NCBI GenBank assembly: GCA_041649475.1 | Contig: JBAZNA010000001.1 | Location: forward strand, 611,308-675,307 | From: Patescibacteria group bacterium | GTDB taxonomy: Bacteria; Patescibacteriota; Patescibacteriia; Magasanikbacterales; GWA2-37-8 | Direction of reading: 5' to 3' | Length of the DNA: 64,000 bases | Shown: positions 3,243-53,505 of the stretch, piece by piece | How the letters are laid out: every line of letters begins with the position of its first letter | Position numbering within the stretch: the stretch's first letter is position 1 | Made by a program: the position numbers and the translations under genes | The notes under the pieces: generated by a model | What the model was told of the DNA's origin: nothing | The model's database searches: none | The model's input: the letters and a program-made list of their open reading frames with translations, nothing else

Positions 3243-4227
3243 ACGCCATTAATAATACCAAAAATACCAAAGCAAACAACTTTTGCTGGCTTTGAAACAA
3301 TAAAGTGGTAATGCCAAATATAAATGCTAGAGCATACATTAACAGCACGGATTGTTTATGACTCCAGCCGGCGTCCATCAGCCGAAAATGCAAATGCTCA
3401 CGATCACCTTTAAAAATTGATTGCTTGCGGCGGATGCGCGCTACAGCCACTCTGATTAAATCCAAAATCGGTATAGCCATAACCAGTAATGCAGTGGCCA
3501 CTTTACCGCCGGAAATGATTGCCAAAATTCCCAAAATAAAACCGATAAACAAACTGCCACCTTCGCCTAAAAATATTTTAGCCGGATTAAAATTAAAAAT
3601 TAAAAACCCCAGACAACTGCCGGCAAAAATGATCGCCAGCAAGCCGACATTGGGCTGAAAAAATGTCTTGGTATTTGTTAAAAAGAAAATCATCAAAGCG
3701 CCGATAAAAACTATGCCTGTGGATAAGCCGTCTAGCCCGTCTAAAATTTTTGTCGTATACATCATGCCCATCAGCCACAAAAAAGCAAAAATACCGCCGA
3801 CTATCAAACCAAAATTAATAATGCCGCCGAATGGGTTGGTAATTTTTTCCAAGCCCACTCCGCCGATGACAGCCACTAGCGCCGCCAAGGCAGTAATCAG
3901 TAACCGAAACTGCGGACTTAATTGTTTGGCATCATCAACCGCGCCCATGATAATTAAAATCAAACCGGCAGCCGCGATCCAAATCAATTTATTTTTAAAA
4001 ATTTCAATGCCGTAAATCGGGTTTAATAATAAAAACCCAACCACCAAAGAAAAAGAAATAAAAATGGCCACACCCCCCAAAAGCGGAGTTGGCCCAAAAT
4101 GTTTTTTTCGCTGTTGATCCGGCACATCCACAATTTGAAAACGCAAAGCCAATCGCCTGACGACGATGGTAAACAAAATTGATGACGCTAACGCGGCTAA
4201 AAAATATATCAAGTAAGTATAAAACAT
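3220..4227 (-). CDS. Glycosyltransferase family 4 polyprenyl-phosphate HexNAc-1-phosphate transferase (WecA/TagO/MraY family)
   Basis: Polytopic membrane protein with a DDxxQ motif and C-terminal GDREHLHFRLM, which resembles WecA HIHHRL more than MraY HHHFE. Confidence 0.7.
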   Translation of the reverse strand: MFYTYLIYFLAALASSILFTIVVRRLALRFQIVDVPDQQRKKHFGPTPLLGGVAIFISFSLVVGFLLLNPIYGIEIFKNKLIWIAAAGLILIIMGAVDDAKQLSPQFRLLITALAALVAVIGGVGLEKITNPFGGIINFGLIVGGIFAFLWLMGMMYTTKILDGLDGLSTGIVFIGALMIFFLTNTKTFFQPNVGLLAIIFAGSCLGFLIFNFNPAKIFLGEGGSLFIGFILGILAIISGGKVATALLVMAIPILDLIRVAVARIRRKQSIFKGDREHLHFRLMDAGWSHKQSVLLMYALAFIFGITTLLFQSQQKLFALVFLVLLMAYVTIKTS

Positions 4228-4229
4228 AA

Positions 4230-6959
4230 CTATTCCACGCGAATATTCCCGCCTTCGCCAATGACTACAGTATCTCTCCTTTTCAGTTTTCCGGCAAGCA
4301 ATAAATCAGCCAGCTTGTTTTCCACTCTCTCCTGTAAAACACGGCGCATGGGCCTGGCGCCAAACTCCGGATCAAAACCGGCTTCGGCCAAATAACTGAT
4401 GGCCCCATCTTCAACTTTCATTTGCACGCCTTTGACTTCCAATTCTTTAACAATTCTCTGTAACATCAATCCGGCCACTTTCTGTATCGCTTCTTTATCC
4501 AGCGGTTTGAATAATATTATGCCGTCAAAACGATTTAAAAATTCCGGCCGGAAATATTGTTTTAATTCCCCGTGCAACAATCTTTCTTTTATCGCTTCCT
4601 GTGATAAACCGGCGCGCATTTGTTCTGACACATAACTTGTGCCGGCATTGGAGGTGGCAATCAAAATTATATTGGTAAAATCAACCGCCCGGCCGGTGCT
4701 GTCTGACAGGCGCCCGTCATCCATCACCTGTAAAAACAAATTTAAAATATCCGGGTCGGCTTTTTCAATTTCATCTAAAAGCAAAAGCGCAAACGGATGG
4801 CGGCGCACTGATTCCGTCAAAATACCGCTGCCTTTTTGTCCGGCCGCGCCGATAAGCCGCGACAGACCGGATTTTTCCTGGTATTCACTCATATCCAAAC
4901 GGATCATGCGATCTTCGCCGCCAAAATATACTTCGGCAATGGTTTTTGCCAGTTCGGTTTTGCCGACGCCGGTGGGGCCGAGAAATAAAAAGTTGGCGAT
5001 TGGTCTTTTGGCGGAACGGATTTCGGCGCGGGCGCGGCGCAAAGAACTGGCCACCGCATCAACGCCTTCGTCCTGGCCGATTACCCGCTTGTGCATTTCT
5101 GCTTCCAGATTTAATAACTTGGTTGACTCGTCACTTGATACAGTGGTAAGCGGGATTTTTGTTTTTTCCGCAATCACGGCCGCCACTTCTTCTCCGGTCA
5201 CCAAAGTGTTGGCACCTTTTTTGTTATGAGCAAAACTGGCCGCTTCAGTCATTATCTCCAAGGCGCTGCCCGGCAGATATATTTCGTGGATAAATTTGGC
5301 GGAAAACTGCGCTGCCTTTTCAATCGCGTCATAAGAAAAGAAAACATTTTGTTTGTATTCCGCCTCCCCTACTTTTGATTCCAAAACCTGAATCGCTTGG
5401 TTGACATCCATCTCCGGCACATCAATTTTTGTAAACACGTTGCCCATAGTTGAATTGGCAATGTGTTTGGCAAAATCCTCATTAGTGGTGGTGGCAACGG
5501 TTAAAAACCGGCCGCTGGTTAAAAATTCCGCCAAAGTGTCGGCGACATCCAAACTACCCTCTTGCCCGCCGGCAGACACACCTATCAGTTCATGAATATT
5601 GTGGATAAACAAAATCACATTGCGGGCGCGAGAAATTTCATGCATAATATTTCGCAATCTATCAACCGCTCCGGCCGGGTCTGTACCACCCAACAATGCG
5701 GACACGCTTAAGCGCACCATGCGCTTGTCTTTGAGGCGATCCGGCACATCATCAGCCACCATGCTTTGAGCAACCCCTTCCACAATTGATCTTTTACCCA
5801 CGCCATGATCACCAACCAGCAAAACATTATGCTGACCGCCCTCAACCACCCGGTATATTTCTTCAATTTCTTTTACTCGCGCCACGCAGGGATTTAAATG
5901 TCCGAATTGCGCGAGTAAAGTTAAGTCGTCACTGAATTGATTTAAATAGGGAGTGGCCAAGGCGGTCATGGCTTTGTCCATGCCATATTTTGACCGATGC
6001 GACGCGGCCCGGGCAAATTTTACGTATTGGCGATGCAGTCGCTCCCGAATTCGCGCCCACTCAATCACATTGGCCAATTTTTGATTATTAATATCTAAAG
6101 CAAACATTATTTCCTGGATTTCCGGCGACTCTTTGACCGCGCAAATTAAAAGCTCGGTTACGCTCACATATTCCTGGTGAGCGTTATAGGCCTCTTCATA
6201 GGCCTGAAAAATTATTTGTTGGAAATCGGCCGACAGAACCGGCGCTGATTTGATTTTTTCTTCAGTTAATTCCAATTTACTGATTTGTTCTTCAAACACG
6301 CTGGCCGGAATGCCCAAACGGATAAAAATATTGCCGATGCGATTAAATTTTAACAGGGCCAAAAACAAATCAATCGGCCCGACTTCTTTTTTCCCGTATT
6401 TATCCGCCAATTTATACGCACTACCCAGGGCAGACATGGCCTCGGCAGTAAAGGTCTCAGTAATATTCAATCGTTTTTTCCACGGCACGCGCTTGATCTG
6501 GTCCCAGACATTTATATTTAAGCCCTCATCTTTTTCCGGCTGTTTATCAAACTCATACTCAAATCTTTCCACCATGCCCGTAAATTCGCCTTGTTTAATA
6601 ACGCGATACCATAAATACAATAATCCGATGACGCCGAGATAAAATAAATATGAAAAAACCATTTGCCCGGATTTATACACTCCAAATCCGACCCAGATCC
6701 AACAAGTTAGAGTAAAAACCAAAGCCGTAATCACCCGGATTTTATTAAGTATTCGCCTGCCTCTTTGTAAAGCAATGTTATAACGCGTGAGCGGATAATT
6801 CCAATACAGCCATTTACTTCGTAAATAAACACCCATCCGCGTTTCAGCGCGCTTGTTATTGGTTAAAATATTCAGTGGTGGAGATTTTTGAAAATCCATA
6901 TTCAGGTCAGGCGCCAAAAGGCAATTTAATAGAAAAAGGATGGAGAAAACCGTAGACAA
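4230..6959 (-). CDS. ClpA/ClpC-like two-domain AAA+ chaperone with N-terminal membrane-anchor extension and degenerate D1 ATPase motifs
   Basis: Clp_N repeats are present. D1 P-loop is GDHGVGKRS (consensus GEPGVGKT) and the D1 Walker B position reads FIHN instead of FIDE. D2 has intact Walker A GPTGVGKT and Walker B LLLLDEIEKA, plus sensor-2 GARP.R. There is no long ClpB-type M-domain. The N-terminal ~130 aa hold two hydrophobic helices. Start codon is uncertain (TTG at 6959, ATG at 6899 or 6829). Confidence 0.8.
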   Translation of the reverse strand: MSTVFSILFLLNCLLAPDLNMDFQKSPPLNILTNNKRAETRMGVYLRSKWLYWNYPLTRYNIALQRGRRILNKIRVITALVFTLTCWIWVGFGVYKSGQMVFSYLFYLGVIGLLYLWYRVIKQGEFTGMVERFEYEFDKQPEKDEGLNINVWDQIKRVPWKKRLNITETFTAEAMSALGSAYKLADKYGKKEVGPIDLFLALLKFNRIGNIFIRLGIPASVFEEQISKLELTEEKIKSAPVLSADFQQIIFQAYEEAYNAHQEYVSVTELLICAVKESPEIQEIMFALDINNQKLANVIEWARIRERLHRQYVKFARAASHRSKYGMDKAMTALATPYLNQFSDDLTLLAQFGHLNPCVARVKEIEEIYRVVEGGQHNVLLVGDHGVGKRSIVEGVAQSMVADDVPDRLKDKRMVRLSVSALLGGTDPAGAVDRLRNIMHEISRARNVILFIHNIHELIGVSAGGQEGSLDVADTLAEFLTSGRFLTVATTTNEDFAKHIANSTMGNVFTKIDVPEMDVNQAIQVLESKVGEAEYKQNVFFSYDAIEKAAQFSAKFIHEIYLPGSALEIMTEAASFAHNKKGANTLVTGEEVAAVIAEKTKIPLTTVSSDESTKLLNLEAEMHKRVIGQDEGVDAVASSLRRARAEIRSAKRPIANFLFLGPTGVGKTELAKTIAEVYFGGEDRMIRLDMSEYQEKSGLSRLIGAAGQKGSGILTESVRRHPFALLLLDEIEKADPDILNLFLQVMDDGRLSDSTGRAVDFTNIILIATSNAGTSYVSEQMRAGLSQEAIKERLLHGELKQYFRPEFLNRFDGIILFKPLDKEAIQKVAGLMLQRIVKELEVKGVQMKVEDGAISYLAEAGFDPEFGARPMRRVLQERVENKLADLLLAGKLKRRDTVVIGEGGNIRVE

Positions 6960-21514: not shown

Positions 21515-23293
21515 ATGCCCAAAAAATGGATTATCAGTTCTCCGCCGTCAGCGGATTTTATAAATTCTCATCCGGAGTTGCCGCCGATTATCGCCCGCCT
21601 GCTTTGGAATAGAAATCTTCATGCGCAGGAGCAAATTGATGAATTTTTAAACCCCGACTACTCCCAGGATATTCATGATCCGTATTTATTTAAGGACATG
21701 AAAAAAGCGCTGGAGATAATTTTTAAAGCGATCAAGGCGCAAAAAAATATTGTCGTGCATGGCGACTATGACGCCGACGGCGTCTGTGCGACCGCAATTT
21801 TAGTCAGCACGCTAAAAAAATTGGGTGCGCAAAATGTCAGCGTCTTTATTCCCCACCGCGAAATTGACGGCTATGGCTTAAACACCAATACCGTGGAATC
21901 TTTGTCCGCGCAAAAAACCGATTTAATCATCACTTGCGACTGCGGCATCAGTAATTTTGAAGAAGTAGCTTTGGTAAAAAAGAAAGGGATGCAAATTATT
22001 GTAACTGATCATCACACCGTGCCGAAAAAAAATCCGGCGGCGGACGCGATTATTCACCCCTTGGTTGATAAGAACTACCCGGATAAGGGCTTGTGCGGCG
22101 CCGCCGTGGCCTTTAAACTGGTTCAAGGCCTGCTTAAAAAACACACCGAAGATAACGACACTTTGCCGGACGGACAAGCTCATGAGGCCTTTGAAAAATG
22201 GCTGCTTGATTTGGTGGCTATTGCCACCATCGGCGACATGGTGCCGCTCCTTGGCGAATCCCGCACCCTGACCAAATACGGACTTACGGTTTTAAATAAA
22301 ACCAGAAATATCGGTTTAAAAAAATTATGTGTTGTGGCCGGCATTGCCGACGAAAAAGGCCAGAGCAAACGCGGCGCTTATGACGCCCACAGCGTCAGTT
22401 TTCAAATCGTACCGCGACTGAACGCCGCCGGGCGCATGGATCACGCCAATACCGCCTATGCCCTGCTCATGGCCACGGACGAAAAAGAAGCGGAGGCCTT
22501 GGCCGCGCAGCTTAATAAAAATAATACTGACCGCCAAAAACTGACCGAACAATATGTCAGCGAAGCGCGCAAACAAATAAAAGAAACCCACCAGGAAAAT
22601 AACAGCGTGCTTTTTGTTTTGGGCCAGAACTGGCCAACCGGTATTTTCGGGCTGGTTTCCGGAAAATTAAAAGATGAATTTTATAAACCGGCTATAGTCA
22701 TGGGCGAAGCAAAAGACGAGATCAGCGGTTCGGGCCGAAGCATAAAAGAATTCAATTTGATTGCGGCGCTTCAATCCATGCCTGAAATTTTTGAAAAATT
22801 CGGCGGCCATCCGCAGGCCTGCGGTTTTGAATTAAAAAGCAAAGATAAACTGGAAGAATTTAAAAATAAATTATCTAAAGCGGCCGCTTTGCAGACCGCC
22901 GGCGTTGAACTTCTGCCGCAAATAAATATTGACGCCGAGGTTGATTTGGATGAAGTGAATTGGAAATTATATGATCTGCTGCAAAAATTTGAACCGTTTG
23001 GCATGGCTAACGAAGAACCGGTGTATACGGCCGGCTCGCTCACGCTCGCCGGTATTGAACCGGTCGGTCAGGACGGCAAGCATCTGCGCCTGATGGTAAA
23101 ACATAATTCCCAGGTGATTAAAAAAACCATTGGCTTCGGCTTGGGCGACAGCAACAGAAATGAAACCAACTGGAAAGAAATCCTCAAACCCGGCGACAAA
23201 ATTGATATGGTTTTTACGGTCGGCGTAAATGAATGGAATGGAAATAGAGAACTACAACTTACGATAGAGGATATAAAGAAAACAAAAGAGTGA
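21515..23293 (+). CDS. recJ: Single-stranded-DNA-specific exonuclease RecJ
   Basis: DHH motifs (HGDYDADG, DHH), a DHHA1 domain and a C-terminal OB-fold-like domain. Confidence 0.85.
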   Translation: MPKKWIISSPPSADFINSHPELPPIIARLLWNRNLHAQEQIDEFLNPDYSQDIHDPYLFKDMKKALEIIFKAIKAQKNIVVHGDYDADGVCATAILVSTLKKLGAQNVSVFIPHREIDGYGLNTNTVESLSAQKTDLIITCDCGISNFEEVALVKKKGMQIIVTDHHTVPKKNPAADAIIHPLVDKNYPDKGLCGAAVAFKLVQGLLKKHTEDNDTLPDGQAHEAFEKWLLDLVAIATIGDMVPLLGESRTLTKYGLTVLNKTRNIGLKKLCVVAGIADEKGQSKRGAYDAHSVSFQIVPRLNAAGRMDHANTAYALLMATDEKEAEALAAQLNKNNTDRQKLTEQYVSEARKQIKETHQENNSVLFVLGQNWPTGIFGLVSGKLKDEFYKPAIVMGEAKDEISGSGRSIKEFNLIAALQSMPEIFEKFGGHPQACGFELKSKDKLEEFKNKLSKAAALQTAGVELLPQINIDAEVDLDEVNWKLYDLLQKFEPFGMANEEPVYTAGSLTLAGIEPVGQDGKHLRLMVKHNSQVIKKTIGFGLGDSNRNETNWKEILKPGDKIDMVFTVGVNEWNGNRELQLTIEDIKKTKE

Positions 23294-23357
23294 GAGAAAA
23301 AGTTTTGAGCACTAGGCGTATGCCTTGGCGAAAAACTTTTTCTCTCACTCTTTTGTT
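23283..23357. repeat. Palindromic intergenic repeat element, copy A (arm 24 bp, core GAGCACTAGGCGTATGCCTTGGCG, inverted arm)
   Basis: Left arm AAAAGAGTGAGAGAAAAAGTTTT is perfectly complementary to the right arm AAAACTTTTTCTCTCACTCTTTT. The recJ stop codon lies inside the left arm. Copy A is flanked by T-runs and sits between convergent genes. Confidence 0.8.
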
Positions 23358-39395: not shown

Positions 39396-39465
39396 AAAAG
39401 AGGGAGAGAAAAAGTTTTTCGCCAAGCTTCGCTAGTGCTCAAAACTCTTTCTCTCCCTCTTTTTT
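39396..39465. repeat. Palindromic intergenic repeat element, copy B (core in inverted orientation: CGCCAAGCTTCGCTAGTGCTC)
   Basis: Arms AAAAGAGGGAGAGAAAAAGTTTT and AAAACTCTTTCTCTCCCTCTTTT have 1 mismatch between them and match the arms of copies A and D. The element lies between convergent rnhA and the secreted-protein gene. Confidence 0.8.
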
Positions 39466-39471
39466 AGTTAA

Positions 39472-40152
39472 TTACTGTTTAATCAAACGTACCGTTTTGG
39501 CCGTATAAACAGTTTTGGTATTGCTGTTAATCAGTCCGCTGACCGCAACGGTGCTGCTCACGGTAAAATTTGACAATGTCGGATTGGTGACTTTGGCCAC
39601 TTTGAACTTTGTGTTAGCATCGGTCTTTACTGTCACTACAGTCGCGTTGTGTTTGCCATAAGCGAACACAAAACTTCCGCTGGCTGTGTCTATGGAAACA
39701 ATTTTGCCGGTTCGTGAAAATACATGAATGGAATTATCTTTTACAAGCTGGGCGGTCACCGTGCCGTCTTGGTTGGTCTTAGCTATAACGCTCACCGCGT
39801 CGCCAATTTGCAATTCAGACAATCCGGATTTGGCATAAAATTCTCTTATTACTCTGGTAGTGGAAGTAATCTGAATTGTTAAATTCTGGGTGGACGTAGG
39901 ATACGCACCGGTCCAATTTTTTAATTTCTTTGGTAACACTTTGTTAACGGTGATGACCATACTGGTAGGCGCGGTTGTGCCGGCCAAACTCACAATTTTG
40001 CCGGTCAAGGTAACGGCGCGGCGGGTAAATTTAGCCGCAGCAACCAACTTCGCCGGTTTTATTTTTGCATGTTCAGTGTTTTGCGCCAATGCCGGGGCTA
40101 CCAACATAAACGAAAACATGCTGATCAAAACTATTGTAAATATTTTTTTCAT
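39472..40152 (-). CDS. Secreted hypothetical protein (possibly DUF5666-like), last gene of the heat-shock/ECF operon
   Basis: Signal peptide and a Thr/Val-rich beta-strand composition. Follows directly after the anti-sigma-like gene. Confidence 0.4.
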   Translation of the reverse strand: MKKIFTIVLISMFSFMLVAPALAQNTEHAKIKPAKLVAAAKFTRRAVTLTGKIVSLAGTTAPTSMVITVNKVLPKKLKNWTGAYPTSTQNLTIQITSTTRVIREFYAKSGLSELQIGDAVSVIAKTNQDGTVTAQLVKDNSIHVFSRTGKIVSIDTASGSFVFAYGKHNATVVTVKTDANTKFKVAKVTNPTLSNFTVSSTVAVSGLINSNTKTVYTAKTVRLIKQ

Positions 40153-40160
40153 ATGGCTAA

Positions 40161-40760
40161 TTAATTATTATAATTATTATCCCTATTTATTTGCCTGTCC
40201 GACCTATGCAGGCCTTCATTAAATTTAAAATTTGAATTATTTTTTAATTTATTTTTTATTTCCGTGCGTAATTTGAGAACTTTGTTGTTTTGAGGATTTA
40301 TTTTTTCCAATTTTTTGTCCACCTTCTGCAATTTATCGGCAACCTTTTGTATTTGCTTATCAACAGAATCAAGCTTTTGTCCGCGCTTTTTAATTACCAC
40401 GGCTTCGGCCTCGCGCTTATCAATTTGTTTTAACAAAAATTTAGCTTTGGCTTCCGGAGTCACCTGCACTGTTTCTTCAACTTTTTCAATCTCCTGTTTA
40501 ATCGGGTAAAGCGGAGTGCCTTCAGTTACATCCGGACTGGTGTAAGCATAGGAGCCGGTAACCAAACTGGCGCCGATAATAACAACAGAAGTAAAAGCAA
40601 CCGCTCTTTTAAACCAAACGGTTTGGTACCAATTCAGTTGAGTCGCGTATTTCTTTTGCCAAGCCGAGTCCAATTTGGCTTTTAAAGCAATTTTAAATTT
40701 ATTGTCCGGCGACAAATCCCTCTGTGCTTTCCATAAATTGTATCTGGCTTTGAAGTTCAT
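40161..40760 (-). CDS. Anti-sigma-factor-like single-pass membrane protein (DUF5667-like)
   Basis: Cytoplasmic N-terminus, TM helix, extracytoplasmic coiled-coil K/E-rich region. Located immediately downstream of an ECF sigma factor. Confidence 0.4.
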   Translation of the reverse strand: MNFKARYNLWKAQRDLSPDNKFKIALKAKLDSAWQKKYATQLNWYQTVWFKRAVAFTSVVIIGASLVTGSYAYTSPDVTEGTPLYPIKQEIEKVEETVQVTPEAKAKFLLKQIDKREAEAVVIKKRGQKLDSVDKQIQKVADKLQKVDKKLEKINPQNNKVLKLRTEIKNKLKNNSNFKFNEGLHRSDRQINRDNNYNN

Positions 40761-40763
40761 AAT

Positions 40764-41285
40764 TTACTCGTTTTGGGCGAATTTAGAAAGTTTTTTTATG
40801 GCCCGATGGGCCGCTACTTTAACCGCCGTTTCCGTCATGCCTTTCATTTCCGCGATTTCTAAATAGCTATACCCAAAAATATAATGAAAGGTTACAATTT
40901 CACGGGTATTTTCGTCTAATTTGGCTAATAATTCATAAATTTCTTTTTTTATTGATTCTTTTTTAAAGGCGCGCGAGGCCAAATTCAGCCAAAAACTATC
41001 AACATTTTCGTCTGTTTCTTCCGGCAATGAGCCGACCGGCTTTTTATCCCGGTAGTAGTTAGCCATGTGATTTTTGCAAATTGTCATGATCCAGGCGGAT
41101 TGGCTGATTTTTGGGTCATAGGTCTCAAAATGCTCCAGGGCTTTCATAAAAATTTCCGATACCAAATCCTCGGCCAGTTCTTTATTGGCGCTAACGCGAA
41201 AAAAGACAAAGCGGTAAACTTTGTCTAAATGGGTTTGATAGAATTTTTCAAAATCGTGCTTTTTCACACTATCATTATAACTCAC
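40764..41285 (-). CDS. ECF-type RNA polymerase sigma-70 family factor
   Basis: Region 2 ([17 protein letters not shown]....AEDLVSE.F.K) and region 4 HTH ([28 protein letters not shown]). The start overlaps dnaJ by 11 nt. Confidence 0.8.
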
Positions 41286-42426
41286 TTTTCAAATCATCCA
41301 AAATCTTACGGGCGTTTTTGTTTAAATGTTTGGGCACGCGGATTTTTATTTTCACATACTGGTCTCCCCTGCCGTTGTCATTTAAATGCCCAACGCCTTT
41401 ATTTTTTAATCTGATCAATTGCCCGGATTCGGTGCCTTCCGGAACCACTAACCGAGTTTGCCCTTCAAGTGTTTCAATATTTATGGTGTCGCCGAGCACA
41501 GCTTGCGGAAAATTTATTTCGGCCTCGATGTAAATATCATACCCCTCGCGTTTGAATCCTTTTAGCGGCCTGACGTGAACCAAGACATACAAATCACCGG
41601 ACGAACCGCCGCGGCCTGCCGCTTCGCCGTGGCCGGAAAGGCGGATTGATTGACCATCATCAATGCCAGCCGGAATTTTTACTTTTATTTCCGAGTTGGA
41701 AGTGATCACGCCCGAGCCGTTGCAGTGTTTGCATTTTTTACTCGGCTTCTCGCCTTGGCCGTGACAATCCGGGCAAGTGGTGACGGTCTGCATTGTGCCC
41801 AAAAATGTCCGTTGGTTTTGCACAACTTGTCCTTGGCCGTGACAGGTCGGACAATTTTCCATCTTACTCCCCGGCTCGGCGCCAGTGCCACCGCAGACAT
41901 CACATTTATTTTGTTTTCGCAGTGATATTTGTTTTTCCACGCCAAAGGCCGCTTCTTTAAAATCTATCTGCGCGTCAATTTGAATATCGCGGCCGCGGCT
42001 TTGTCCACCGCGCCTGGAACCTCCTCTGGAACCGCCGCCGCCAAAACCGAACAAGTCCCCAAACATGTCGTTTAAATCCATCCCGCCAAAATCAAAAGAA
42101 AAATTTTGGAAACCACCCTGGCCACCGGCGCCGCCCTGACCGCGGGCTGCGCGCATGAAATCTTCCCATGTCATGCCCTGACCAAAACCGCCCTGCTGTT
42201 CAAAATCAGAGCCAAACTGATCATAGCGCTTGCGTTTTTCCGCGTCACCCAAGACCTGATATGCCTCATTCACTTCTTTGAATTTGGCCTCGTTCCCGCC
42301 CGGTCTGTCCGGGTGATGTTCCATGGCCGCCTTCTTAAAGGCCTTTTTTATATCATCTTGTGAAGCGTTTTTATCAACTCCGAGAATTTTGTAATAATCT
42401 TTTCCCATAACGAAGTTACTAGCCAA
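41275..42426 (-). CDS. dnaJ: Chaperone DnaJ
   Basis: J-domain with HPD, a G/F-rich region, four CxxCxGxG zinc-finger repeats and a C-terminal domain. Confidence 0.95.
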
Positions 42427-42428
42427 AG

Positions 42429-42749
42429 TTACCTTTTCAGCCCGATATTAATTTCTGATTCCACTTCTCTTCTTAATTCTTCATAAAATTCTAAATTTTC
42501 TTTAGCAAAATCAACATCTTTCCAGTTGGGGTTATCTTCCGGCGGAATCCATTTAGTATTTTCGGCCATCTCTTCTTTAAGACCATCCTTTAAATCTTTC
42601 ATCAAATCCGAATTTTTTCTAACCGCGGCTATTGTGCCCCCTCTATATTGGGGTGTAGCAATTGCGCATCTTCCACAAAGCCCATGAGAAATTGGCTCCC
42701 CTGATGTACCAGCTTTTTCTCTTCCACAAACCATGCAAATGGATTTCAT
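42429..42749 (-). CDS. Small zinc-ribbon protein (CxxC-x15-CxxC) inserted between dnaK and dnaJ, hypothetical
   Basis: 106 aa with N-terminal CMVCG...CGRC and an acidic C-terminal helical region. Confidence 0.45.
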
Positions 42750-42752
42750 ATA

Positions 42753-44666
42753 TTATTTTTTATCATCAACAACCTCGCCCTCAATCGGGCCTTCTTCTTT
42801 CTTGGGACCTTGATCACCGGGGTTTGGGCCGGCCTGCGCCCCACTTTGTCCGGCCTGCCCCTGCTGGTACATCTTGGCGCCAACAACCTGCGCGGCTTTG
42901 GATAATTCTTCAGCCGCCTTTTTCATGGCCTCAACATCATCTTTATCTTTAACTTCCTTCATCTTGACCAGCGCCTCACTCACCGCTTTTTTCTCGTCAT
43001 CGGTAACCGCGATTTTCTTTTCCTCAATTTCTTTCATCATTTTTTCGGTTGTATAAACCATGGTGTCGGCCAAATTTCTGGTTTCAATCAGTTCCTGCTT
43101 TTTCTTATCTTCGGCCGCGTGCGCTTCCGCGTCTTTTCTCATGCGTTCAACTTCGTCTTTTGACAAGCCCGAAGATGACTCAATCCTGATTGATTGTTCT
43201 TTGTTGGTGGCCTTGTCTTTGGCTTTGACGTTCAAAATGCCATTAGCATCAATATCAAAACTCACTTCCACCTGCGGCACACCGCGCGGAGCCGGCGGGA
43301 TTCCGTCCAGGATAAACTTGCCAAGAGTTTTATTATCACCTGCCATCGGACGCTCTCCCTGCAAAACATGAATTTCCACTGCCGGCTGATTATCGGCCGC
43401 CGTAGAAAAGACCTGTGATTTGGAAGTCGGGATGGTGGTATTTCTTTCAATGAGTTTAGTCATCACACTGCCAAAGGTTTCAATGCCGAGAGATAATGGC
43501 GTGACATCTAAAAGCAAAACATCTTTGACATCGCCTTTTAACACCCCACCCTGCACAGCCGCGCCAACCGCCACCACCTCATCCGGGTTCACACTGATAT
43601 TTGGCTTTTTGCCAAAAAACTTTTCCACAGTCGCGAGAACCAGGGGCATACGGGTCATACCGCCAACCATCACCACTTCATGTAAATCATTCGGAGTCAG
43701 CTTGGCATCGTCAAGCGCTTTGCGCACCGGCCCTAAAGTTTTCTCCACCAATTCCCCGACTAATTCTTCCAATTTTGATCGGGTCAGTTTCATCACCATG
43801 TGCTTTGGACCGCTTGAGTCAGAAGTAATAAACGGCTGATTGATTTCCGATTCCTGGGCCGTTGAAAGTTCAATCTTGGCTTTTTCGGCCGCTTCTCTTA
43901 TGCGTTGAAGTGCCAATGGATCTTTACTCAAATCAATCCCCTGGTCCTTTTTGAATTCATCCAAAATCCATTGAATAATCACCTGGTCAAAATCATCGCC
44001 GCCCAGATGAGTATCGCCGTTTGTTGAGAGCACCTGAACATTATCCGGCGCCACTTCCAAAATGGAAATATCAAAAGTTCCGCCGCCCAAATCATAGACC
44101 GCAATTTTTTGTTCGGTTTTTTTATCAAAACCATAAGCAAGCGCGGCCGCGGTCGGCTCGTTGATAATTCGCAGAACCTCCAAACCGGCAATTGCTCCGG
44201 CATCTTTGGTGGCCTGACGTTGTGAATCATCAAAATATGCCGGCACGGTAATTACCGCTTCAGTGATTTTTTCTCCCAAGCGTTCTTCGGCGTCAGCTTT
44301 CATCTTTCCCAAAATCATGGCCGAAATTTCCTGCGGGGAATATTCTTTGCCTTGCATCGCAACCTTCACGCCGCCGCCGGCATTAACAATTTTATACGGC
44401 ATGAGTTTAAGGTCGCGCTGGACTTCGGCGTCTTCCCATCTGCGGCCAATCAAACGCTTGATTGAATACAGCGTGTTTTCCGGATTGGTGACGGCCTGGC
44501 GTTTGGCCAGTTGGCCAACCAGCCGCTCGCCATTTTTGGAAATGGCCACAACCGACGGCGTGGTGCGCGCGCCTTCTTTATTTTCCAAAACCTTTGGCTG
44601 GCCGCCTTCTATAATGGCCATGCATGAATTAGTTGTACCGAGATCTATTCCGAGAACTTTGGACAT
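42753..44666 (-). CDS. dnaK: Chaperone DnaK (Hsp70)
   Basis: Full-length Hsp70 with motifs [18 protein letters not shown] and the EEVD-less bacterial C-terminus. Confidence 0.97.
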
Positions 44667-44701
44667 AATTTTAAAATAAGTTAATTTTTAATTATTTATT
44701 T

Positions 44702-45019
44702 TTATGATTTTTCGGCTTTTGGCGCGGTAATTTTCAAAACTCCATCCTGAAATTCGGCGCTGACCTTATCTTCCAACACTGCTGTCGGCAAAGCCACTTC
44801 CCGGTAAAACGCACCGCTTCTAATTTCTTTGCGGTAATAATTTTTTTCATCAACCTCATGTTCGTTTTTTGATCCGCCTTTAATCACCAACACGCCTTTT
44901 TCTACACTTATACTAACATCTTCCGGCTTGATTCCGGCCAAAGGCAATTTCACCACTACATCCTTGTCGGTTTCATACATATCCATTGCCGGCACAAATG
45001 CCCAAGGAATGATATTCAT
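44702..45019 (-). CDS. Hsp20/alpha-crystallin family small heat-shock protein
   Basis: 105-aa alpha-crystallin domain with the A.F.DGVL.I..PK motif. Confidence 0.85.
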   Translation of the reverse strand: MNIIPWAFVPAMDMYETDKDVVVKLPLAGIKPEDVSISVEKGVLVIKGGSKNEHEVDEKNYYRKEIRSGAFYREVALPTAVLEDKVSAEFQDGVLKITAPKAEKS

Positions 45020-45046
45020 ATAAATTAAAGTTAAAAGTCAGTTAAA

Positions 45047-45924
45047 TTATTTAGCAATTATTACTCTGGCGGGCCTAACTACCCTATCTCCCATTTTATA
45101 ACCGCCAGAAACCTCTTTCAAAATCGTGTCTGCGTCAACCTCTTCATTTTCTTCCTCGCCAACCGCTTCGTGATATTTCGGATCAAACTTTTCGCCCACA
45201 GTTTTTATTTCCTCCAAATTATGCGCTTTCAAAATATCTCCAAACTGCTTCATTATATGTCCAACTCCTTCTGACCATTGTTTCCAGCCATTTTCTTCAT
45301 TCATCTGCTCCCGGTGCGCAAACGCCTTTTTAAAATTTTCATAAACCGGTATGAATTCTTCCAAAATTTGCAGTTCGCTCATTTTCACCCACTCACCGCG
45401 TCTGGCCGCAATTTCATTCTGTAAATTTTTGTAATCGGCCAAAGCCCTCTGCCAACCCTTTTTATATTCTTCAGTTTCCAGCATTTTTTTATACATTTTT
45501 ACATTTTCTTTAATCGTCTCATGTATATCTTTCTTTTCCAGAATTTCATCCGGTGAAAGCCAAACTACTTCTGTCCCTTCCTCACCATCTAATTTAATTT
45601 CATTTTTATTTGATACTAGATCAACCAAATAATTTAAGGCAATAAAATGATCCTTACCATCTTTATAATCTTTATCATGAACAAGATCAAAAGCATTTAA
45701 CAGACGTGGGTTTTCCACAACTGCGCCGGTTTCTTCTTCAACTTCGCGGAGTAGTGCATCCTGAACTTTCTCTCCCCACTCCACATGTCCGCCTGGGATT
45801 GTTAATTTATTCTGCCATTTTGGGCTTTTCATTAAGAAAAATTTTCCATCCTGGCTAAGTATCATTGCCCCGGCCGATACCCATGGATATTTCTTTTCTT
45901 CTTTTTTATTTTGGTCATCTGACA
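45047..45924 (-). CDS. grpE: Nudix hydrolase-GrpE fusion protein (N-terminal Nudix domain, C-terminal GrpE nucleotide-exchange-factor domain)
   Basis: Nudix box GGHVEWGEKVQDALLREVEEETGA. C-terminal GrpE motifs: coiled coil, FDPKYHEAV, GYKMGDRVVRPARV. Occupies the grpE slot of the hrcA-grpE-dnaK-dnaJ operon. The true start is probably the ATG near 45924; the GTG at 45964 would sit inside repeat element C. Confidence 0.75.
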
Positions 45925-45935
45925 TATATTGTATA

Positions 45936-46002
45936 GGTAGATATTTATTAAGCATTTTGAGCACTAGCGATAGCTTGGCGAAAAATGCTTAATAAATATC
46001 TA
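45936..46002. repeat. Palindromic intergenic repeat element, copy C (core GAGCACTAGCGATAGCTTGGCG; divergent arms)
   Basis: Perfect 22-bp arms GTAGATATTTATTAAGCATTTT and AAAATGCTTAATAAATATCTAC flank the conserved core. Lies between hrcA and the Nudix-GrpE gene. Confidence 0.8.
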
Positions 46003-46016
46003 CATGTGAAATAATG

Positions 46017-46703
46017 TTAAATAATCTCTAAAACTTTTTTAAGTAAGACAAAATTATGCTTGTAATCCATCCGCTTCGGTCCCAGCAAGGCAATCAAACT
46101 TTTTCCGTTGCCGCCAAAACGCGCGGACAAAACGCTTAAAATCGGGCCGAACGGATGCTCCTTGCCGATAAAATATTTCGGCTCTTCGTCAACTTTATCA
46201 AAAAAATCTTCCAGACATTCTTCGCAGTGATCAAAAATGCTAGAAATATCCGCCACTAAATTCAATTCTTTAAATTCGGGCTTATTAAATAAATTTGACA
46301 GACCGGTATAATATATTTTTTCCAAAGAAAAGGCCAGAATAACGGTTTCATTTGAAAGTTCAACCAATGACTTAGCCAGATTTTTTCTGGAGATTTCGTA
46401 ATCAGAATCGCTTTTGGCCGCATTGGAAATAAAACTGGCATCGCGTTTTGAGATTCTCAAATTATCCGCTTTTAAATTATCAATATAATGATGATAGCCC
46501 TTTTCGGTTGGCACGCGGCCGGCCGAGGTGTGAGGATGGGTTAAAAATCCTTCTTCTTCAAGCGCGCGCAGTTCATTGCGCACCGTAGCTTCGCTTAATT
46601 TTAAACCGCCGGCGGAAATCAAAAAACGTGAGCCGATTGGCTCGGCATTAGCAATATAGTTTTCCATGACGAGGTTAAAAAGTTTTTCTTTGCGAGTATC
46701 CAT
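46017..46703 (-). CDS. hrcA: Heat-inducible transcription repressor HrcA (short form; true start ATG at about 46703)
   Basis: N-terminal winged-HTH region (SRFLISAGGLKLSEATVRNEL..LE..GFL..PHTSAGRVPT) and a CIRCE operator 17 nt upstream. The ORF track extends it to 46757. Confidence 0.85.
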   Translation of the reverse strand: MDTRKEKLFNLVMENYIANAEPIGSRFLISAGGLKLSEATVRNELRALEEEGFLTHPHTSAGRVPTEKGYHHYIDNLKADNLRISKRDASFISNAAKSDSDYEISRKNLAKSLVELSNETVILAFSLEKIYYTGLSNLFNKPEFKELNLVADISSIFDHCEECLEDFFDKVDEEPKYFIGKEHPFGPILSVLSARFGGNGKSLIALLGPKRMDYKHNFVLLKKVLEII

Positions 46704-46719
46704 AATATTGATACGGATT

Positions 46720-46746
46720 TTATCACTCAAAGCTTCCGAGTGATAA
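46720..46746. promoter_or_regulatory. CIRCE operator (TTATCACTC-N9-GAGTGATAA), HrcA binding site
   Basis: Perfect 9-bp inverted repeat with a 9-bp spacer. Each half differs by one position from the consensus TTAGCACTC-N9-GAGTGCTAA. It overlaps the -10 element of the upstream promoter, as in classical dnaK/groE promoters. Confidence 0.85.
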
Positions 46747-46773
46747 TATACCACCAAGCAAAAAAGCCGTCAA
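46745..46773 (-). promoter_or_regulatory. Sigma-A type promoter of the hrcA-grpE-dnaK-dnaJ operon (TTGACG-17 nt-TATATT)
   Basis: Read on the minus strand: -35 TTGACG, a 17-nt spacer, and -10 TATATT running directly into the CIRCE left half. Confidence 0.7.
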
Positions 46774-46800: not shown

Positions 46801-46857
46801 AAAAAAAGTCCCAACGAAACTCTGTCGGGACCGGACTGGGCGCCTCTATGAGCGCCC
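46801..46857 (-). terminator. Tandem hairpin rho-independent terminator downstream of the high-GC gene
   Basis: Hairpin GGGCGC-N8-GCGCCC sits right after the stop codon. It is followed by GTCCCGAC-N8-GTTGGGAC and a T7 run on the minus strand. Confidence 0.6.
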
Positions 46858-47538
46858 TTAGTTGTGCGGGGTACGCCGTCGGCGGCTGGCCGGGACGGAG
46901 ATCTCCAGCACCAGGGTGTTGGCGTTGATCTCCACGATCATACGCTTCTCCAGCTCATGCTGGCGGCGCTCCTCCTCCGGGAGCGATGCCGTGTAGAGCT
47001 CCTCTGCTGTCTTCTCATCCAAGGGGAGACCGGCCTGCTTCATCTCCGCGAACAGAACGGCTGCCTCCATGACCGTAACCGTGTTCTTGCCGGCCGCACC
47101 ACGACAGTAGCCGAAGCCGGCTTCCAAACTGTGGACCGGGTTGCTGGCCCGCTCACCGTTCTGGGTCATGACGTTGCCGTGCGGGTACTTGAACGGGCAG
47201 TTGGAACTGGAACAGGTCTGAAACTTGAACCGGGGCGTGATACCCTCCGTCGGAGGCGGTGCACAGCCCGCCATTCGCTCACAGACAGCGGCGAAGTCGG
47301 GCAGGAGTCCGGCGTCCCTCATCACGGCCTCCACCGCCGGCGCCTCATCGCTGGTGATCATTCCGCTCTTGATGGCCTTGTACAGAAACGCCTTGCCATC
47401 GGCCAGACAGATGACTGGATGGGGTTCAAGATCCTCATCCGTCACGAAACAACCGTAGGCAATACCGAGGATTTCCAAGAACAAGTCCTGGATACCCTTA
47501 AGGAACATCATAGACATGGTCGCCTCCCATTTCTCCAA
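46858..47538 (-). CDS. Hypothetical Cys-rich protein encoded in an abrupt high-GC (about 60%) segment; probable horizontally acquired gene
   Basis: 226-aa ORF with a diverse amino-acid composition and a strong SD (GGAGG) 6 nt upstream of the ATG. The antisense frame is also open, but its product is R/G/L-rich, typical of a high-GC antisense artefact. No family was recognised. Confidence 0.55.
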   Translation of the reverse strand: MEKWEATMSMMFLKGIQDLFLEILGIAYGCFVTDEDLEPHPVICLADGKAFLYKAIKSGMITSDEAPAVEAVMRDAGLLPDFAAVCERMAGCAPPPTEGITPRFKFQTCSSSNCPFKYPHGNVMTQNGERASNPVHSLEAGFGYCRGAAGKNTVTVMEAAVLFAEMKQAGLPLDEKTAEELYTASLPEEERRQHELEKRMIVEINANTLVLEISVPASRRRRTPHN

Positions 47539-47582
47539 AGTTGATAAGCTAAAAATACAGCTTTATACCAAAAATGTCAACA

Positions 47583-47651
47583 AAAAGAGGGAGATAGGAA
47601 GTTTTGAGCACTAGCGCCAGCTTGGCGAAAAACTTCTTATCTCCCTCTTTA
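47583..47651. repeat. Palindromic intergenic repeat element, copy D (core GAGCACTAGCGCCAGCTTGGCG)
   Basis: Arms AAAAAGAGGGAGATAGGAAGTTTT and AAAAACTTCTTATCTCCCTCTTT have 1 mismatch between them. The element lies between the SPFH gene stop and the high-GC gene start. Confidence 0.8.
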
Positions 47652-51957: not shown

Positions 51958-52049
51958 AAGAAATATTATAGACCCTTTTTATGATTCTTGCAAAAATGAT
52001 ATTGTTGTGTTAGTTTTAAGGCAAACCTTTACGTAAATGGAGGGAAGTC

Positions 52050-52691
52050 ATGACCCAGCGAGAGATCCTGGATCTGTTCGCGTCTCTGGGCGCCATCATA
52101 ACGGGCACCCACGTGGTGTACAAGTCACATAAGCACGGCAGTACCTATGTCAACAAGGACGCCATCTACCCCCACACCAGGGCGATTTCCGTCCTCTGCC
52201 GGAGGATCGCCAATGACTGCGCCTTGACCAAAGCGGGCATTGAAGTGGTGGTCGGCCCAGCCATGGGAGGCATCATCCTGTCCCAGTGGGTGGCCCACCA
52301 CCTCTCTACATTCGGCACAGATGAGGTCCTAGCCGTCTACGCCGAGAAGAATGGGGATGACTTCATCATCAAACGCGGCCAGGACAAGCTGCTCAAGGAC
52401 AAACGGGTCGTGGTGGTGGAGGACGTCCTGACCACCGGCGGATCGGTGAAGAAGGTGGTCCAGGCCGTGCGCGACTGCGGCGGACACGTGGACTGCGTCT
52501 TCGCCCTCTGCAACCGCGGCGGCGTGACCGCCAGCATGATCGACGCGCCCATCCTCTGCTCCCTGGTCAATGTCACCATGGACGCCTTCGACCCGGCGGA
52601 CTGCCCGCTCTGCCGCGGCCACGTGCCGATCAACACCGAGGTCGGTCACGGGGCCGAGTTCCTGGTCGCGCATCCCGAGATGAAATTCTAA
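52050..52691 (+). CDS. pyrE: Type I phosphoribosyltransferase, orotate phosphoribosyltransferase-like (high-GC island)
   Basis: PRPP-binding motif VVVVEDVLTTGGS. 213 aa, about 62% GC, with a strong SD (GGAGGG) before the ATG. Confidence 0.7.
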   Translation: MTQREILDLFASLGAIITGTHVVYKSHKHGSTYVNKDAIYPHTRAISVLCRRIANDCALTKAGIEVVVGPAMGGIILSQWVAHHLSTFGTDEVLAVYAEKNGDDFIIKRGQDKLLKDKRVVVVEDVLTTGGSVKKVVQAVRDCGGHVDCVFALCNRGGVTASMIDAPILCSLVNVTMDAFDPADCPLCRGHVPINTEVGHGAEFLVAHPEMKF

Positions 52692-52726
52692 CCCTGACAG
52701 GACCACACAACTGGAAGGAGAAGGCC

Positions 52727-53446
52727 ATGTCCGATAGGTGCAATCCCGCCAACGAGGCGGTTAACCCGATCGTGGTCGCGCTCGACGGCAAAAGCTGGGA
52801 TGAGATCCTGACGCTCATTCTCCAGCTCCGGACCACGGGCTGTATCCTCAAGGTCAACGACCTGCTCTTTGCCGAGGGCATCAACAACCTCCTGCCGAAG
52901 CTCTCGGCCCACGGCCGCGTGATGGCCGACCTCAAGTGCCACGACATCCCCAACACGGTGGAAAACACCGTCAAGCGCTTGCGGGCCTGCCCGCCCTGGG
53001 CAGTGACCATCCACGCTTCGGCCGGCATGGAGGCGCTCGAGTCGGCCGTCAAGGTGCTGGAGGACACCCCCACGAAGGTGCTGGCCATCACCGTGCTCAC
53101 CTCCATCGATCCGGTGGCCTGCCAGGAGATCTACAACCGCAACCCCCTGGATCAGATCCTGAACCTGGCGAACATCGCCAAGGAGGCCGGCGTCCACGGC
53201 TTTGTTTGCTCGCCGGAGGAGGTCGGGCAACTCAAGAGGGTGTACCCGAAGATGACCTACGTCGTGCCGGGCATCCGTTCGCCCGGCATCAACCCTGGCG
53301 ACCAGAAGCGTATCTCTACGCCCAAGGCCGCGATGGAGGCCGGCGCCAACCACATCGTGATGGGGCGCCAGATCCTGAACGCGCCGAACCCGGTGGAGGA
53401 GGTTCGCCGGGTACTCAAGGAGGAACTGAACATCGAACTGAAGTAG
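52727..53446 (+). CDS. pyrF: Orotidine-5'-phosphate decarboxylase (high-GC island)
   Basis: OMPdecase motifs: IVVALD, K in ILKVND, DLKCHDIPNTV, VPGIR, and a GANHIVMGR phosphate-binding loop. Confidence 0.85.
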   Translation: MSDRCNPANEAVNPIVVALDGKSWDEILTLILQLRTTGCILKVNDLLFAEGINNLLPKLSAHGRVMADLKCHDIPNTVENTVKRLRACPPWAVTIHASAGMEALESAVKVLEDTPTKVLAITVLTSIDPVACQEIYNRNPLDQILNLANIAKEAGVHGFVCSPEEVGQLKRVYPKMTYVVPGIRSPGINPGDQKRISTPKAAMEAGANHIVMGRQILNAPNPVEEVRRVLKEELNIELK

Positions 53447-53449
53447 TGA

Positions 53450-53488
53450 CGGGGGCACTCTGCGCCATCGCGGAGCCGCCCCTTTTTT
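53450..53488. terminator. GC-rich hairpin plus T6 terminator at the 3' boundary of the high-GC pyrEF island (between convergent genes)
   Basis: GGGGGCACTCTGCGCC...GCGGAGCCGCCCC followed by TTTTTT. Confidence 0.55.
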
Positions 53489-53505
53489 AATTTATTATAA
53501 AAATC

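Follow-up and report, generated by a model that had tools for sequence, protein, structure and literature searches.

Is one promoter the source of every transcript in a heat-shock locus that runs on into the genes of an alternative sigma factor, or does such a locus hold more than one transcription unit? The locus in question lies on the minus strand of a 64-kb stretch of an uncultured Patescibacteria (Magasanikbacteria-type) genome, the whole of which is called the window below. It comprises hrcA, a Nudix-grpE fusion, hsp20, dnaK, a 106-amino-acid (aa) orphan gene, dnaJ, a gene for an extracytoplasmic function (ECF)-type sigma factor, and the genes of a DUF5667 membrane protein and a DUF5666 secreted protein. 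The original prediction placed all nine genes under a single promoter controlled by the repressor HrcA and its operator CIRCE (controlling inverted repeat of chaperone expression). Our analysis points to two units that were brought together, a class I heat-shock operon and a sigma module with a candidate attenuator and a possible residual promoter, and we consider this the probable arrangement. Gene identities were assigned with Pfam and NCBIfam, which confirmed the predicted gene set and order (the 106-aa protein has no family match). For comparison, 65 loci with 10-kb flanks were taken from a profile-based scan, one genome per species, and 7 further loci were added from contigs that carry the genes of the most similar proteins. 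For the sigma factor, 294 homologues were found, and the named ones belong to Patescibacteria, Magasanikbacteria or Parcubacteria. In the Magasanikbacteria-type loci, the window proteins revealed a conserved order by tblastn: SPFH, hrcA, grpE, (hsp20), dnaK, (small open reading frame, ORF), dnaJ, sigma, DUF5667, (DUF5666) and a convergent RNase H gene. The closest long relative, L066, has a sigma factor 79% identical to that of the window. Unless stated otherwise, the features described below lie on the minus strand.

The sigma gene (40764..41285) encodes 173 aa from GTG 41285 or 167 aa from GTG 41267, and its product contains regions 2 and 4 only (Sigma70_r2, 2.5e-14; Sigma70_r4_2, 1.6e-16; TIGR02937, 97 bits against a cut-off of 42.9). 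It is followed after 3 nucleotides (nt) by the gene of a single-pass membrane protein with about 50 cytoplasmic N-terminal residues (40161..40760; Pfam DUF5667, 7e-9), and the same neighbour stands immediately downstream of sigma in 57 of 58 loci. Only DUF5667, in the outer part, is detected in this protein, and neither Pfam nor NCBIfam finds an anti-sigma domain in it; by position and topology it is an anti-sigma candidate. The third gene (39472..40152; Pfam DUF5666, 2e-7) encodes a secreted protein with the signal peptide MKKIFTIVLISMFSFMLVAPALA ahead of Q, and follows DUF5667 in most Magasanikbacteria-type loci. The place of these genes relative to dnaJ varies among relatives. dnaJ lies at most 300 nt upstream of sigma in 27 loci, is split from it by inserts of 0.76-3.7 kb in 10, and is absent from at least 2.4 kb upstream of sigma in 17 lower-identity loci, the taxon-named ones being mostly Uhrbacteria. 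The inserts hold unrelated, heterogeneous genes without a common function, some of them high-GC and secreted, and by eye they include pilin-like and RhuM-like proteins. Judged by gene order, the sigma/DUF5667 pair is an autonomous module and not integral to the chaperone operon, since it stands away from dnaJ in the 17 loci and is separated by inserts in the 10.

In line with this autonomy, many relatives show a predicted sigma promoter of their own. In 28 of 63 loci, sigma is preceded by a -10 element (mostly TGnTATACT or TATAGT) whose end is 5-10 nt from the start codon, compared with 0-3 loci for eight other genes, and such spacing is the geometry of a leaderless mRNA. In L066, the 42-nt dnaJ-sigma spacer reads TTGAAA-17-TGgTATACT-7-ATG, and in L025, L019 and L021 terminator-like hairpins are followed by leaderless-type promoters before sigma. 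The form found in Magasanikbacteria-type relatives, TTGAAA-17-TGnTATACT, is sigma-70-like. An ECF-type autoregulatory promoter (AAC-N16/17-CGT-like) was not found upstream of the window sigma, and an ECF-like candidate motif, GTAAC(C/G)-N14-16-CGTGTATAGT, precedes sigma in Uhrbacteria loci only. In L036, L039, L041, L045, L046 and L049-L055 (Uhrbacteria) this motif, as GTAAC(C/G)-N14-16-(C)GTGTATAGT, stops 5-9 nt short of the sigma start; it looks like both the ECF AAC...CGT promoter and an extended -10, and could be the autoregulatory promoter of these ECF genes.

How, then, is sigma reached by RNA polymerase in the window? Here, as in L068 and L072, the dnaJ-sigma spacer is missing and the genes overlap. 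The 11-nt overlap described in the original prediction holds for GTG 41285, while the alternative GTG 41267 would leave a 7-nt gap. The terminator scan gave no canonical terminator between dnaJ and sigma in the window, and because sigma overlaps or abuts dnaJ in this way, read-through from the heat-shock promoter is plausible. The same few nucleotides also hold a candidate residual leaderless sigma promoter (41265..41301), consisting of TTGGAT (41301-41296), a 16-nt spacer, TATAAT (41279-41274) overlapping the dnaJ stop, 6 nt and GTG 41267. The TATAAT-6 nt-GTG arrangement is kept in the window, L068 and L072, and matches the TATACT-6/9 nt-ATG promoters of relatives.

The simplest alternative to our interpretation is that the CIRCE promoter is the sole source of transcripts for the nine genes, sigma being strictly heat-shock-dependent and coupled to dnaJ, so that heat shock feeds an ECF cascade. 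The lack of a canonical terminator after dnaJ fits this, as do the dnaJ-sigma adjacency in 27 loci, the preservation of the 11-nt overlap in L068 and L072, with an ATG at the overlapping start in L068, and seven relatives (L071, L001, L003, L009, L011, L014 and L024) whose short dnaJ-sigma junctions show no visible promoter. However, a perfect TATAAT stands 6 nt ahead of an in-frame GTG, 28 of the 63 relatives have their own sigma promoter, the module is autonomous elsewhere, and a conserved hairpin with a U-run lies within sigma itself. Moreover, two codons of the N-terminal extension that the overlapping start would add differ among the window, L068 and L072, both of them non-synonymously, as expected if the extension is unconstrained. 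We therefore regard a sole promoter as unlikely.

The hairpin within the coding sequence of sigma is the second feature that sets the module apart. It was found by the terminator scan at sigma codons 21-30 (41199..41226), about 60 nt into the ORF and in the part encoding region 2.1, and consists of AGACAAAGU-UUACC-GCUUUGUCU (41226-41204) and a U-run (41203-41199), that is, a 9-bp stem with a 5-nt loop, then UUUUUCG (-10 kcal/mol, z = -3.2). Across 62 distinct sequences the hairpin is conserved, and it is present in nearly all Magasanikbacteria-type loci. At the same place in Uhrbacteria, the peptide DRIYRYVFFR is encoded by another palindrome, CGTATC-N4-GATACG, which stands in a shifted register and is likewise followed by TTTTTTCG (T6); Firmicute ECF outgroups carry neither the element nor either palindrome. 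When the peptides were recoded synonymously by the codon usage of each locus, 45 of these 62 sequences ranked within the lowest 5% of folding energy (median fraction 0.02). The two Phe codons at the hairpin are TTT in 106 of 108 cases against a background of 70%, even where TTT is the minority codon. A terminator-like hairpin in the 5' coding region of hrcA (46646-46630), considered as a further candidate, failed the recoding test and so provides a negative control. In an alignment of 42 sequences, 93% of the cells of the sigma hairpin pair, and two pairs show compensatory changes with none unpaired (CG 31, UG 6, UA 5; GC 30, AU 7, GU 4, CG 1). Their covariation score was reached by none of 500 shuffles. 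RNAalifold, applied to 120 nt, returned the hairpin as the sole consensus helix and no conserved alternative anti-terminator helix. As far as sequence comparison can tell, the sigma hairpin is conserved beyond codon bias, with compensatory changes, in two classes of the candidate phyla radiation (CPR), which makes it a candidate intrinsic attenuator or terminator on any transcript entering sigma, and one that could divide the region into separate transcription units.

Could the hairpin simply be the end of the dnaK operon? Sigma would then be independent in the window, and its only source would be the TATAAT leaderless promoter, at times when the hairpin is suppressed by ribosomes or conditions. 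This explanation draws on the fact that the hairpin and its U-run are the first terminator-like structure past dnaJ, on the identity of the TATAAT-6 nt-GTG geometry with that of relatives' leaderless promoters, and on the length of the 167-aa product, which falls within the 165-170 aa of the homologues. Nevertheless, the hairpin lies downstream of the candidate promoter and thus does not discriminate between transcript sources, the -35 is weak, a leaderless GTG start is expected to be inefficient, and several relatives have no promoter at all at the junction. We consider complete independence of sigma here to be improbable.

A joined but partly autonomous module, which we favour, has to be weighed against several points as well. 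The -35 of the internal promoter is poor (TTGGAT, 3/6), and its TATAAT owes part of itself to the TAA stop codon of dnaJ. The ATG at the overlapping start of L068 favours translational coupling and pure read-through. The hairpin is AU-rich and worth -10 kcal/mol, so that termination may be weak or none; selection on it could have another object, such as the stability of the mRNA, the pacing of ribosomes or the binding of a protein; covariation is confined to two of its base pairs; and the shuffle statistics are inflated by the phylogenetic relatedness of the sequences. The case for an anti-sigma role of DUF5667 comes from adjacency and topology only. Finally, every promoter and terminator in this account is a prediction from sequence.

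The other unit begins at the promoter of hrcA. The sigma-70-type heat-shock promoter, TTGACG-17-(TGg)TATATT (46745..46773; 10/12 matches, extended -10 TG), meets an operator of the 9-N9-9 type, TTATCACTC-ggaagcttt-GAGTGATAA (46720..46746, no strand assigned), which is a perfect palindrome. The final 2 nt of the -10 TATATT are the first 2 nt of the repeat, and the expected transcription start is also covered. The claim of a promoter overlapping a perfect CIRCE is thus right as to promoter, overlap and palindrome, but the sequence is a variant and not the canonical CIRCE. Compared with canonical TTAGCACTC-N9-GAGTGCTAA, it agrees with the consensus at 16/18 positions and has one symmetric change per arm, T/A at arm position 4, where canonical CIRCE has G/C. 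Upstream, a predicted terminator (46807..46832; 9-bp stem then UUUUUUU, -14.3 kcal/mol by terminator scan and folding) ends the preceding high-GC orphan gene and would thereby insulate the hrcA promoter from upstream transcription.

TTATCACTC-N9-GAGTG(A/C)TAA stands before hrcA in 19 of the 19 relatives covering the region upstream of hrcA, and nowhere else in those loci; across them the arms are conserved and the spacers unrelated, and L038 carries the canonical sequence. Promoters of the form TTGAC(G/A)-16/17-TGnTATATT reach a score of 10 or more in 16 of 18 loci, compared with 0.6% of 100-nt background windows. An exact-match scan of metagenome contigs gave at least 119 sites of the variant and, among the matches listed, 45 were just upstream of groES, 28 of hrcA, 5 of dnaK and 3 of hsp20. 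Taken together, these sequence comparisons identify the promoter/CIRCE pair as a genuine conserved operator-promoter and the variant as a widely used CIRCE flavour. Given its position before groES and hrcA in metagenomes, groESL, at another place in this genome, almost certainly belongs to the regulon as well. No groESL is found in the 64-kb window, where the hrcA site is the single CIRCE-like sequence at up to 3 mismatches (shuffle expectation 0.05). The statement that there is only one CIRCE is true of the window only. A second CIRCE inside the operon was sought in the window (up to 3 mismatches) and in the relatives (up to 4), and none was found apart from one weak 4-mismatch match within dnaJ of L020.

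The first gene of the unit, hrcA (46017..46703), starts at ATG 46703, not at TTG 46757, and encodes a short HrcA of 228 aa with an N-terminal winged helix (Pfam HrcA, 5.4e-14). Against TIGR00331 it gives 1.1e-44 and 153 bits, below the cut-off of 197 because the protein is of the short form; residues 2-121 correspond to model positions 1-121 of 338. The short form is clade-wide (226-230 aa versus the 338-position model); it aligns over the N-terminal 121 positions and in its C-terminal part but lacks the middle. A 292-aa Nudix-GrpE fusion follows (45047..45925; Pfam NUDIX 3e-22, GrpE 2e-37), the start of which (MSDDQNK, ATG 45925) is fixed by homology, as it matches the N-terminus of the unfused GrpE of L066. 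Next come hsp20 (44702..45019; a short alpha-crystallin protein of 105 aa, Pfam HSP20 6e-21), dnaK (42753..44666; Pfam HSP70 1e-258), a zinc-ribbon orphan of 106 aa with a CxxC-x15-CxxC pattern and no Pfam or NCBIfam match (42429..42749), and a type I dnaJ (41275..42408; Pfam DnaJ, the DnaJ_CXXCXGXG zinc domain and DnaJ_C).

The junctions between these genes argue for joint transcription. The gap of 91 nt between hrcA and grpE (52 nt even from the alternative GTG 45964) departs from the gaps of 40 nt or less described before, but the remaining junctions do keep to that description, being at most 35 nt or overlapping. In L066, the junctions from hrcA to dnaJ measure 5, 24, -14, 5, 18 and 3 nt. 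No promoter enrichment was seen in relatives before grpE, hsp20, dnaK, dnaJ or DUF5667, with 0-2 loci scoring at least 10 against the 0.6% background. A promoter-like TTGAAA-17-TAAAAT in the 3' end of grpE (45093..45121), 73 nt before hsp20, was rejected as unconserved and present in about the number expected by chance. Owing to the tight junctions and to the lack of promoter enrichment before grpE, hsp20, dnaK and dnaJ, the stretch from hrcA to dnaJ behaves as a single unit, a conventional class I heat-shock operon. The idea of one CIRCE promoter for the whole operon thus stands for hrcA to dnaJ, with its conserved promoter/operator and without an enriched internal promoter, but does not extend readily to the sigma module, which is autonomous elsewhere, has its own promoter in many relatives and carries the TATAAT-GTG and the hairpin with U-run in the window.

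The content of the operon is fluid, and relatives insert co-directional genes at grpE-dnaK and dnaK-dnaJ. The Nudix domain is inserted past the first ~12 GrpE residues in the window and in four other lineages (L018, L026, L031 and L038). L066 has an unfused GrpE (5934-6488), and an HD-domain (DUF4202) gene between hsp20 and dnaK instead. From the Nudix-GrpE fusions and this HD-domain gene, nucleotide hydrolases seem to have been repeatedly recruited to the heat-shock operon. The zinc-ribbon orphan is matched by 2 proteins only in 5.8 billion, itself and one at 55% identity. In most relatives (e.g. L066, 8417-8851) the dnaK-dnaJ slot is occupied by a family of 145-160 aa that is unrelated to the zinc-ribbon ORF and has no Pfam match; its motifs are LExFRxEI ... 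W..FK ... F.AW..N, and the window, L002 and L025 have the zinc-ribbon orphan instead. Between the SPFH gene and the hrcA promoter, the window holds a high-GC (~0.6) orphan ORF of 219-226 aa (46858-47580), which has a promoter (TTGACA-17-TATTTT) and a terminator of its own and a strong ribosome-binding site (GGGAGG). This insert is not in relatives and has a single homologue in the protein collection, at 72% identity. Other high-GC inserts occur in L009 (SPFH-hrcA), in L017 and L022 (dnaJ-sigma) and in L005, and another high-GC island lies in the window at 52000-53500.

One structure might still divide the hrcA-dnaJ unit. Hairpin C (45927..46013), which fills the hrcA-grpE junction, has a 22-bp AU-rich stem and the loop UCGCCAAGCUAUCGCUAGUGCUC (-36.7 kcal/mol, z = -8.3), and the original prediction saw in it a possible internal attenuator. 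If it terminated or strongly attenuated transcription after hrcA, the operon would be split, and grpE to dnaJ would be expressed separately. The great stability of the stem speaks for such a split, and so do the sister copies A, B and D, which look like terminators. On the other hand, hairpin C ends without a U-tract and is followed by no promoter-like site ahead of grpE (over the 100 nt before this gene the highest score is 8, the background level), there is no second CIRCE, the junction is only 3-20 nt long in most relatives, and the essential chaperones would be left promoterless. Since neither a U-tract nor a promoter follows hairpin C, grpE-dnaK-dnaJ must be transcribed through it. We judge a split at this point to be very improbable, and an attenuator in the terminating sense unlikely; for hairpin C a role in RNA processing or stability is more likely than one in termination. 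Homuth and colleagues are said to have reported, in 1999, a role in processing or differential stability for the B. subtilis hrcA-grpE junction. Hairpins occur at this junction in 5 of 19 lineages including the window, and those of L001, L002, L018 and L053 are unrelated to hairpin C.

The far end of the locus lies where the original prediction placed it, at repeat copy B. This hairpin (39396..39464, no strand assigned) is predicted to be a bidirectional terminator between the convergent DUF5666 (minus strand) and RNase H (plus strand) genes; it forms a strong fold with a U-run on either strand (minus strand, -40.7 kcal/mol, then UUUUAUU; plus strand, -35.9 kcal/mol, then UUUUUU), and its loop motif faces the plus-strand gene. 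Four long hairpins of the window have a common conserved loop, UUUUCGCCAAG..(4-8 nt)..CUAGUGCUCAAAA, which in hairpin C is 23 nt long. Hairpin A (47582-47650) and hairpin D, the fourth copy (about 23285-23350, loop 23307-23331), have U-runs and are terminator-like. Every copy is found on the 3' side of a gene, whose sense orientation the loop shares. Copies A, B and D have a common stem and U-runs; copy C combines this loop with an entirely different stem and has no U-run. The loop motif occurs in none of the 65 related loci. As a known RNA it was rejected, because Rfam gave spurious miRNA-precursor matches only, and ten matches in viral contigs have no hairpin context and are, by a rough uncomputed estimate, about as many as chance would give for 17 specified bases. 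We also rejected the idea that hairpins A and B, which are inverted copies with 89-94% identity at a distance of 8.1 kb, delimit a composite transposon or an invertible segment, because SPFH and RNase H flank the cluster in repeat-free relatives and each copy stands as a terminator behind a gene. In L066, the SPFH-hrcA spacer (4027-4247) holds a different long hairpin, with a stem of ~25 bp and a structured 55-nt loop, at the place taken in the window by hairpin A and the high-GC insert.

We propose the following working model. The first unit, hrcA, Nudix-grpE, hsp20, dnaK, orf106 and dnaJ, would be served by one sigma-70-type promoter, which the short HrcA would repress through the CIRCE variant; as HrcA is the product of the first gene, the operon would be negatively autoregulated. 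By analogy with Bacillus, we infer that repression is relieved when unfolded protein titrates the chaperones, and RNA polymerase would then transcribe hrcA through dnaJ, past hairpin C. The second unit, the ECF sigma, DUF5667 and DUF5666 genes, would be an ancestrally autonomous sigma/anti-sigma-like module that was pushed against dnaJ in this lineage, leaving the 11-nt overlap and no terminator. Because of this junction, part of the heat-shock transcription probably continues into sigma, DUF5667 and DUF5666, and the residual weak promoter TATAAT-6 nt-GTG possibly adds basal sigma expression. The sigma hairpin would meet transcripts from either promoter, and would set the amount of completed sigma/anti-sigma mRNA or make this amount dependent on translation or temperature. 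Both units would end at the bidirectional hairpin B.

Several known systems resemble parts of this model. With the class I CIRCE/HrcA operons of Bacillus subtilis, Clostridium and others, the locus shares hrcA as first gene, a sigma-A-type promoter under a 9-N9-9 repeat, and the order grpE-dnaK-dnaJ. It differs from them in an HrcA about 110 aa shorter than the 338-position TIGR00331, in the fusion of GrpE to Nudix, in the embedded hsp20 and zinc-ribbon orphan, and in the genes past dnaJ, which are a sigma/anti-sigma-like module and not methyltransferases. The closest known system is the heptacistronic dnaK operon of B. subtilis, which also has unrelated genes past dnaJ, and in which hrcA is preceded by a heat-inducible promoter and dnaJ by a constitutive internal one (PMC2952846). 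As for the sigma module, its order, a region 2 and 4 sigma and then a single-pass membrane protein with a short cytoplasmic N-terminus, is that of SigW-RsiW and RpoE-RseA, and its third protein is secreted. Unlike them, the window module has no recognisable anti-sigma domain and no ECF-type autoregulatory promoter, the sigma promoters of relatives look like housekeeping extended -10 promoters giving leaderless mRNAs, and the module of the window is physically joined to the dnaK operon.

The sigma hairpin, with its stem of 8-9 bp, 5-nt loop and 5-6 U, its position in the first 90 nt of the transcript or ORF and its compensatory changes, is similar to intrinsic-terminator attenuators. Unlike leader attenuators, it sits within the coding sequence of the regulated protein itself, has an AU-rich stem and shows no conserved anti-terminator; its regulator, if it is regulated, would have to be the translating ribosome or temperature. 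In E. coli, sigma-E transcribes rpoH, so that the envelope-stress and heat-shock responses are cross-wired. The locus studied here would likewise link protein-folding stress to an extracytoplasmic-type sigma, as a candidate link only, but in the reversed direction, with a heat-shock promoter feeding an ECF sigma, and through read-through instead of a dedicated promoter.

In summary, the core of the locus is a known kind of operon. What is new is the class-wide ECF module beside dnaJ, its alternation between its own promoter and fusion, and a selected terminator-like structure in the sigma coding sequence. Literature searches on DUF5667, on CIRCE/HrcA in Patescibacteria and on ECF sigma factors in CPR gave nothing relevant, and we found nothing on an ECF module beside dnaJ, on alternation between leaderless promoter and fusion, or on a hairpin within a sigma coding sequence. 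CPR bacteria are uncultured and have tiny genomes, and their gene regulation is almost unknown. The locus shows an orthodox HrcA/CIRCE circuit in this group, with a shortened repressor and a slightly altered operator, and beside it a class-wide ECF sigma module that alternates across lineages between its own leaderless promoter and fusion to dnaJ. If the element in sigma attenuates, it would offer a simple case in which the coding sequence of a regulator carries a regulatory signal, and would explain how read-through from a stress operon stays in check; if it does not, what remains is a standard chaperone operon with a neighbouring sigma module. More speculatively, and with more doubt than belief on our part, the ECF sigma genes of at least two CPR classes (Magasanikbacteria-type and Uhrbacteria-type) may carry, in the part encoding region 2.1, a selected ribosome- or temperature-sensitive attenuator, and the fusion to the CIRCE operon in Magasanikbacteria may have created a two-step stress cascade in which derepression upon heat shock provides the transcripts, and the attenuator together with a DUF5667 anti-sigma factor decides on an envelope-type response. 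If true, such a cascade would be a compact stress response in organisms with very few regulators.

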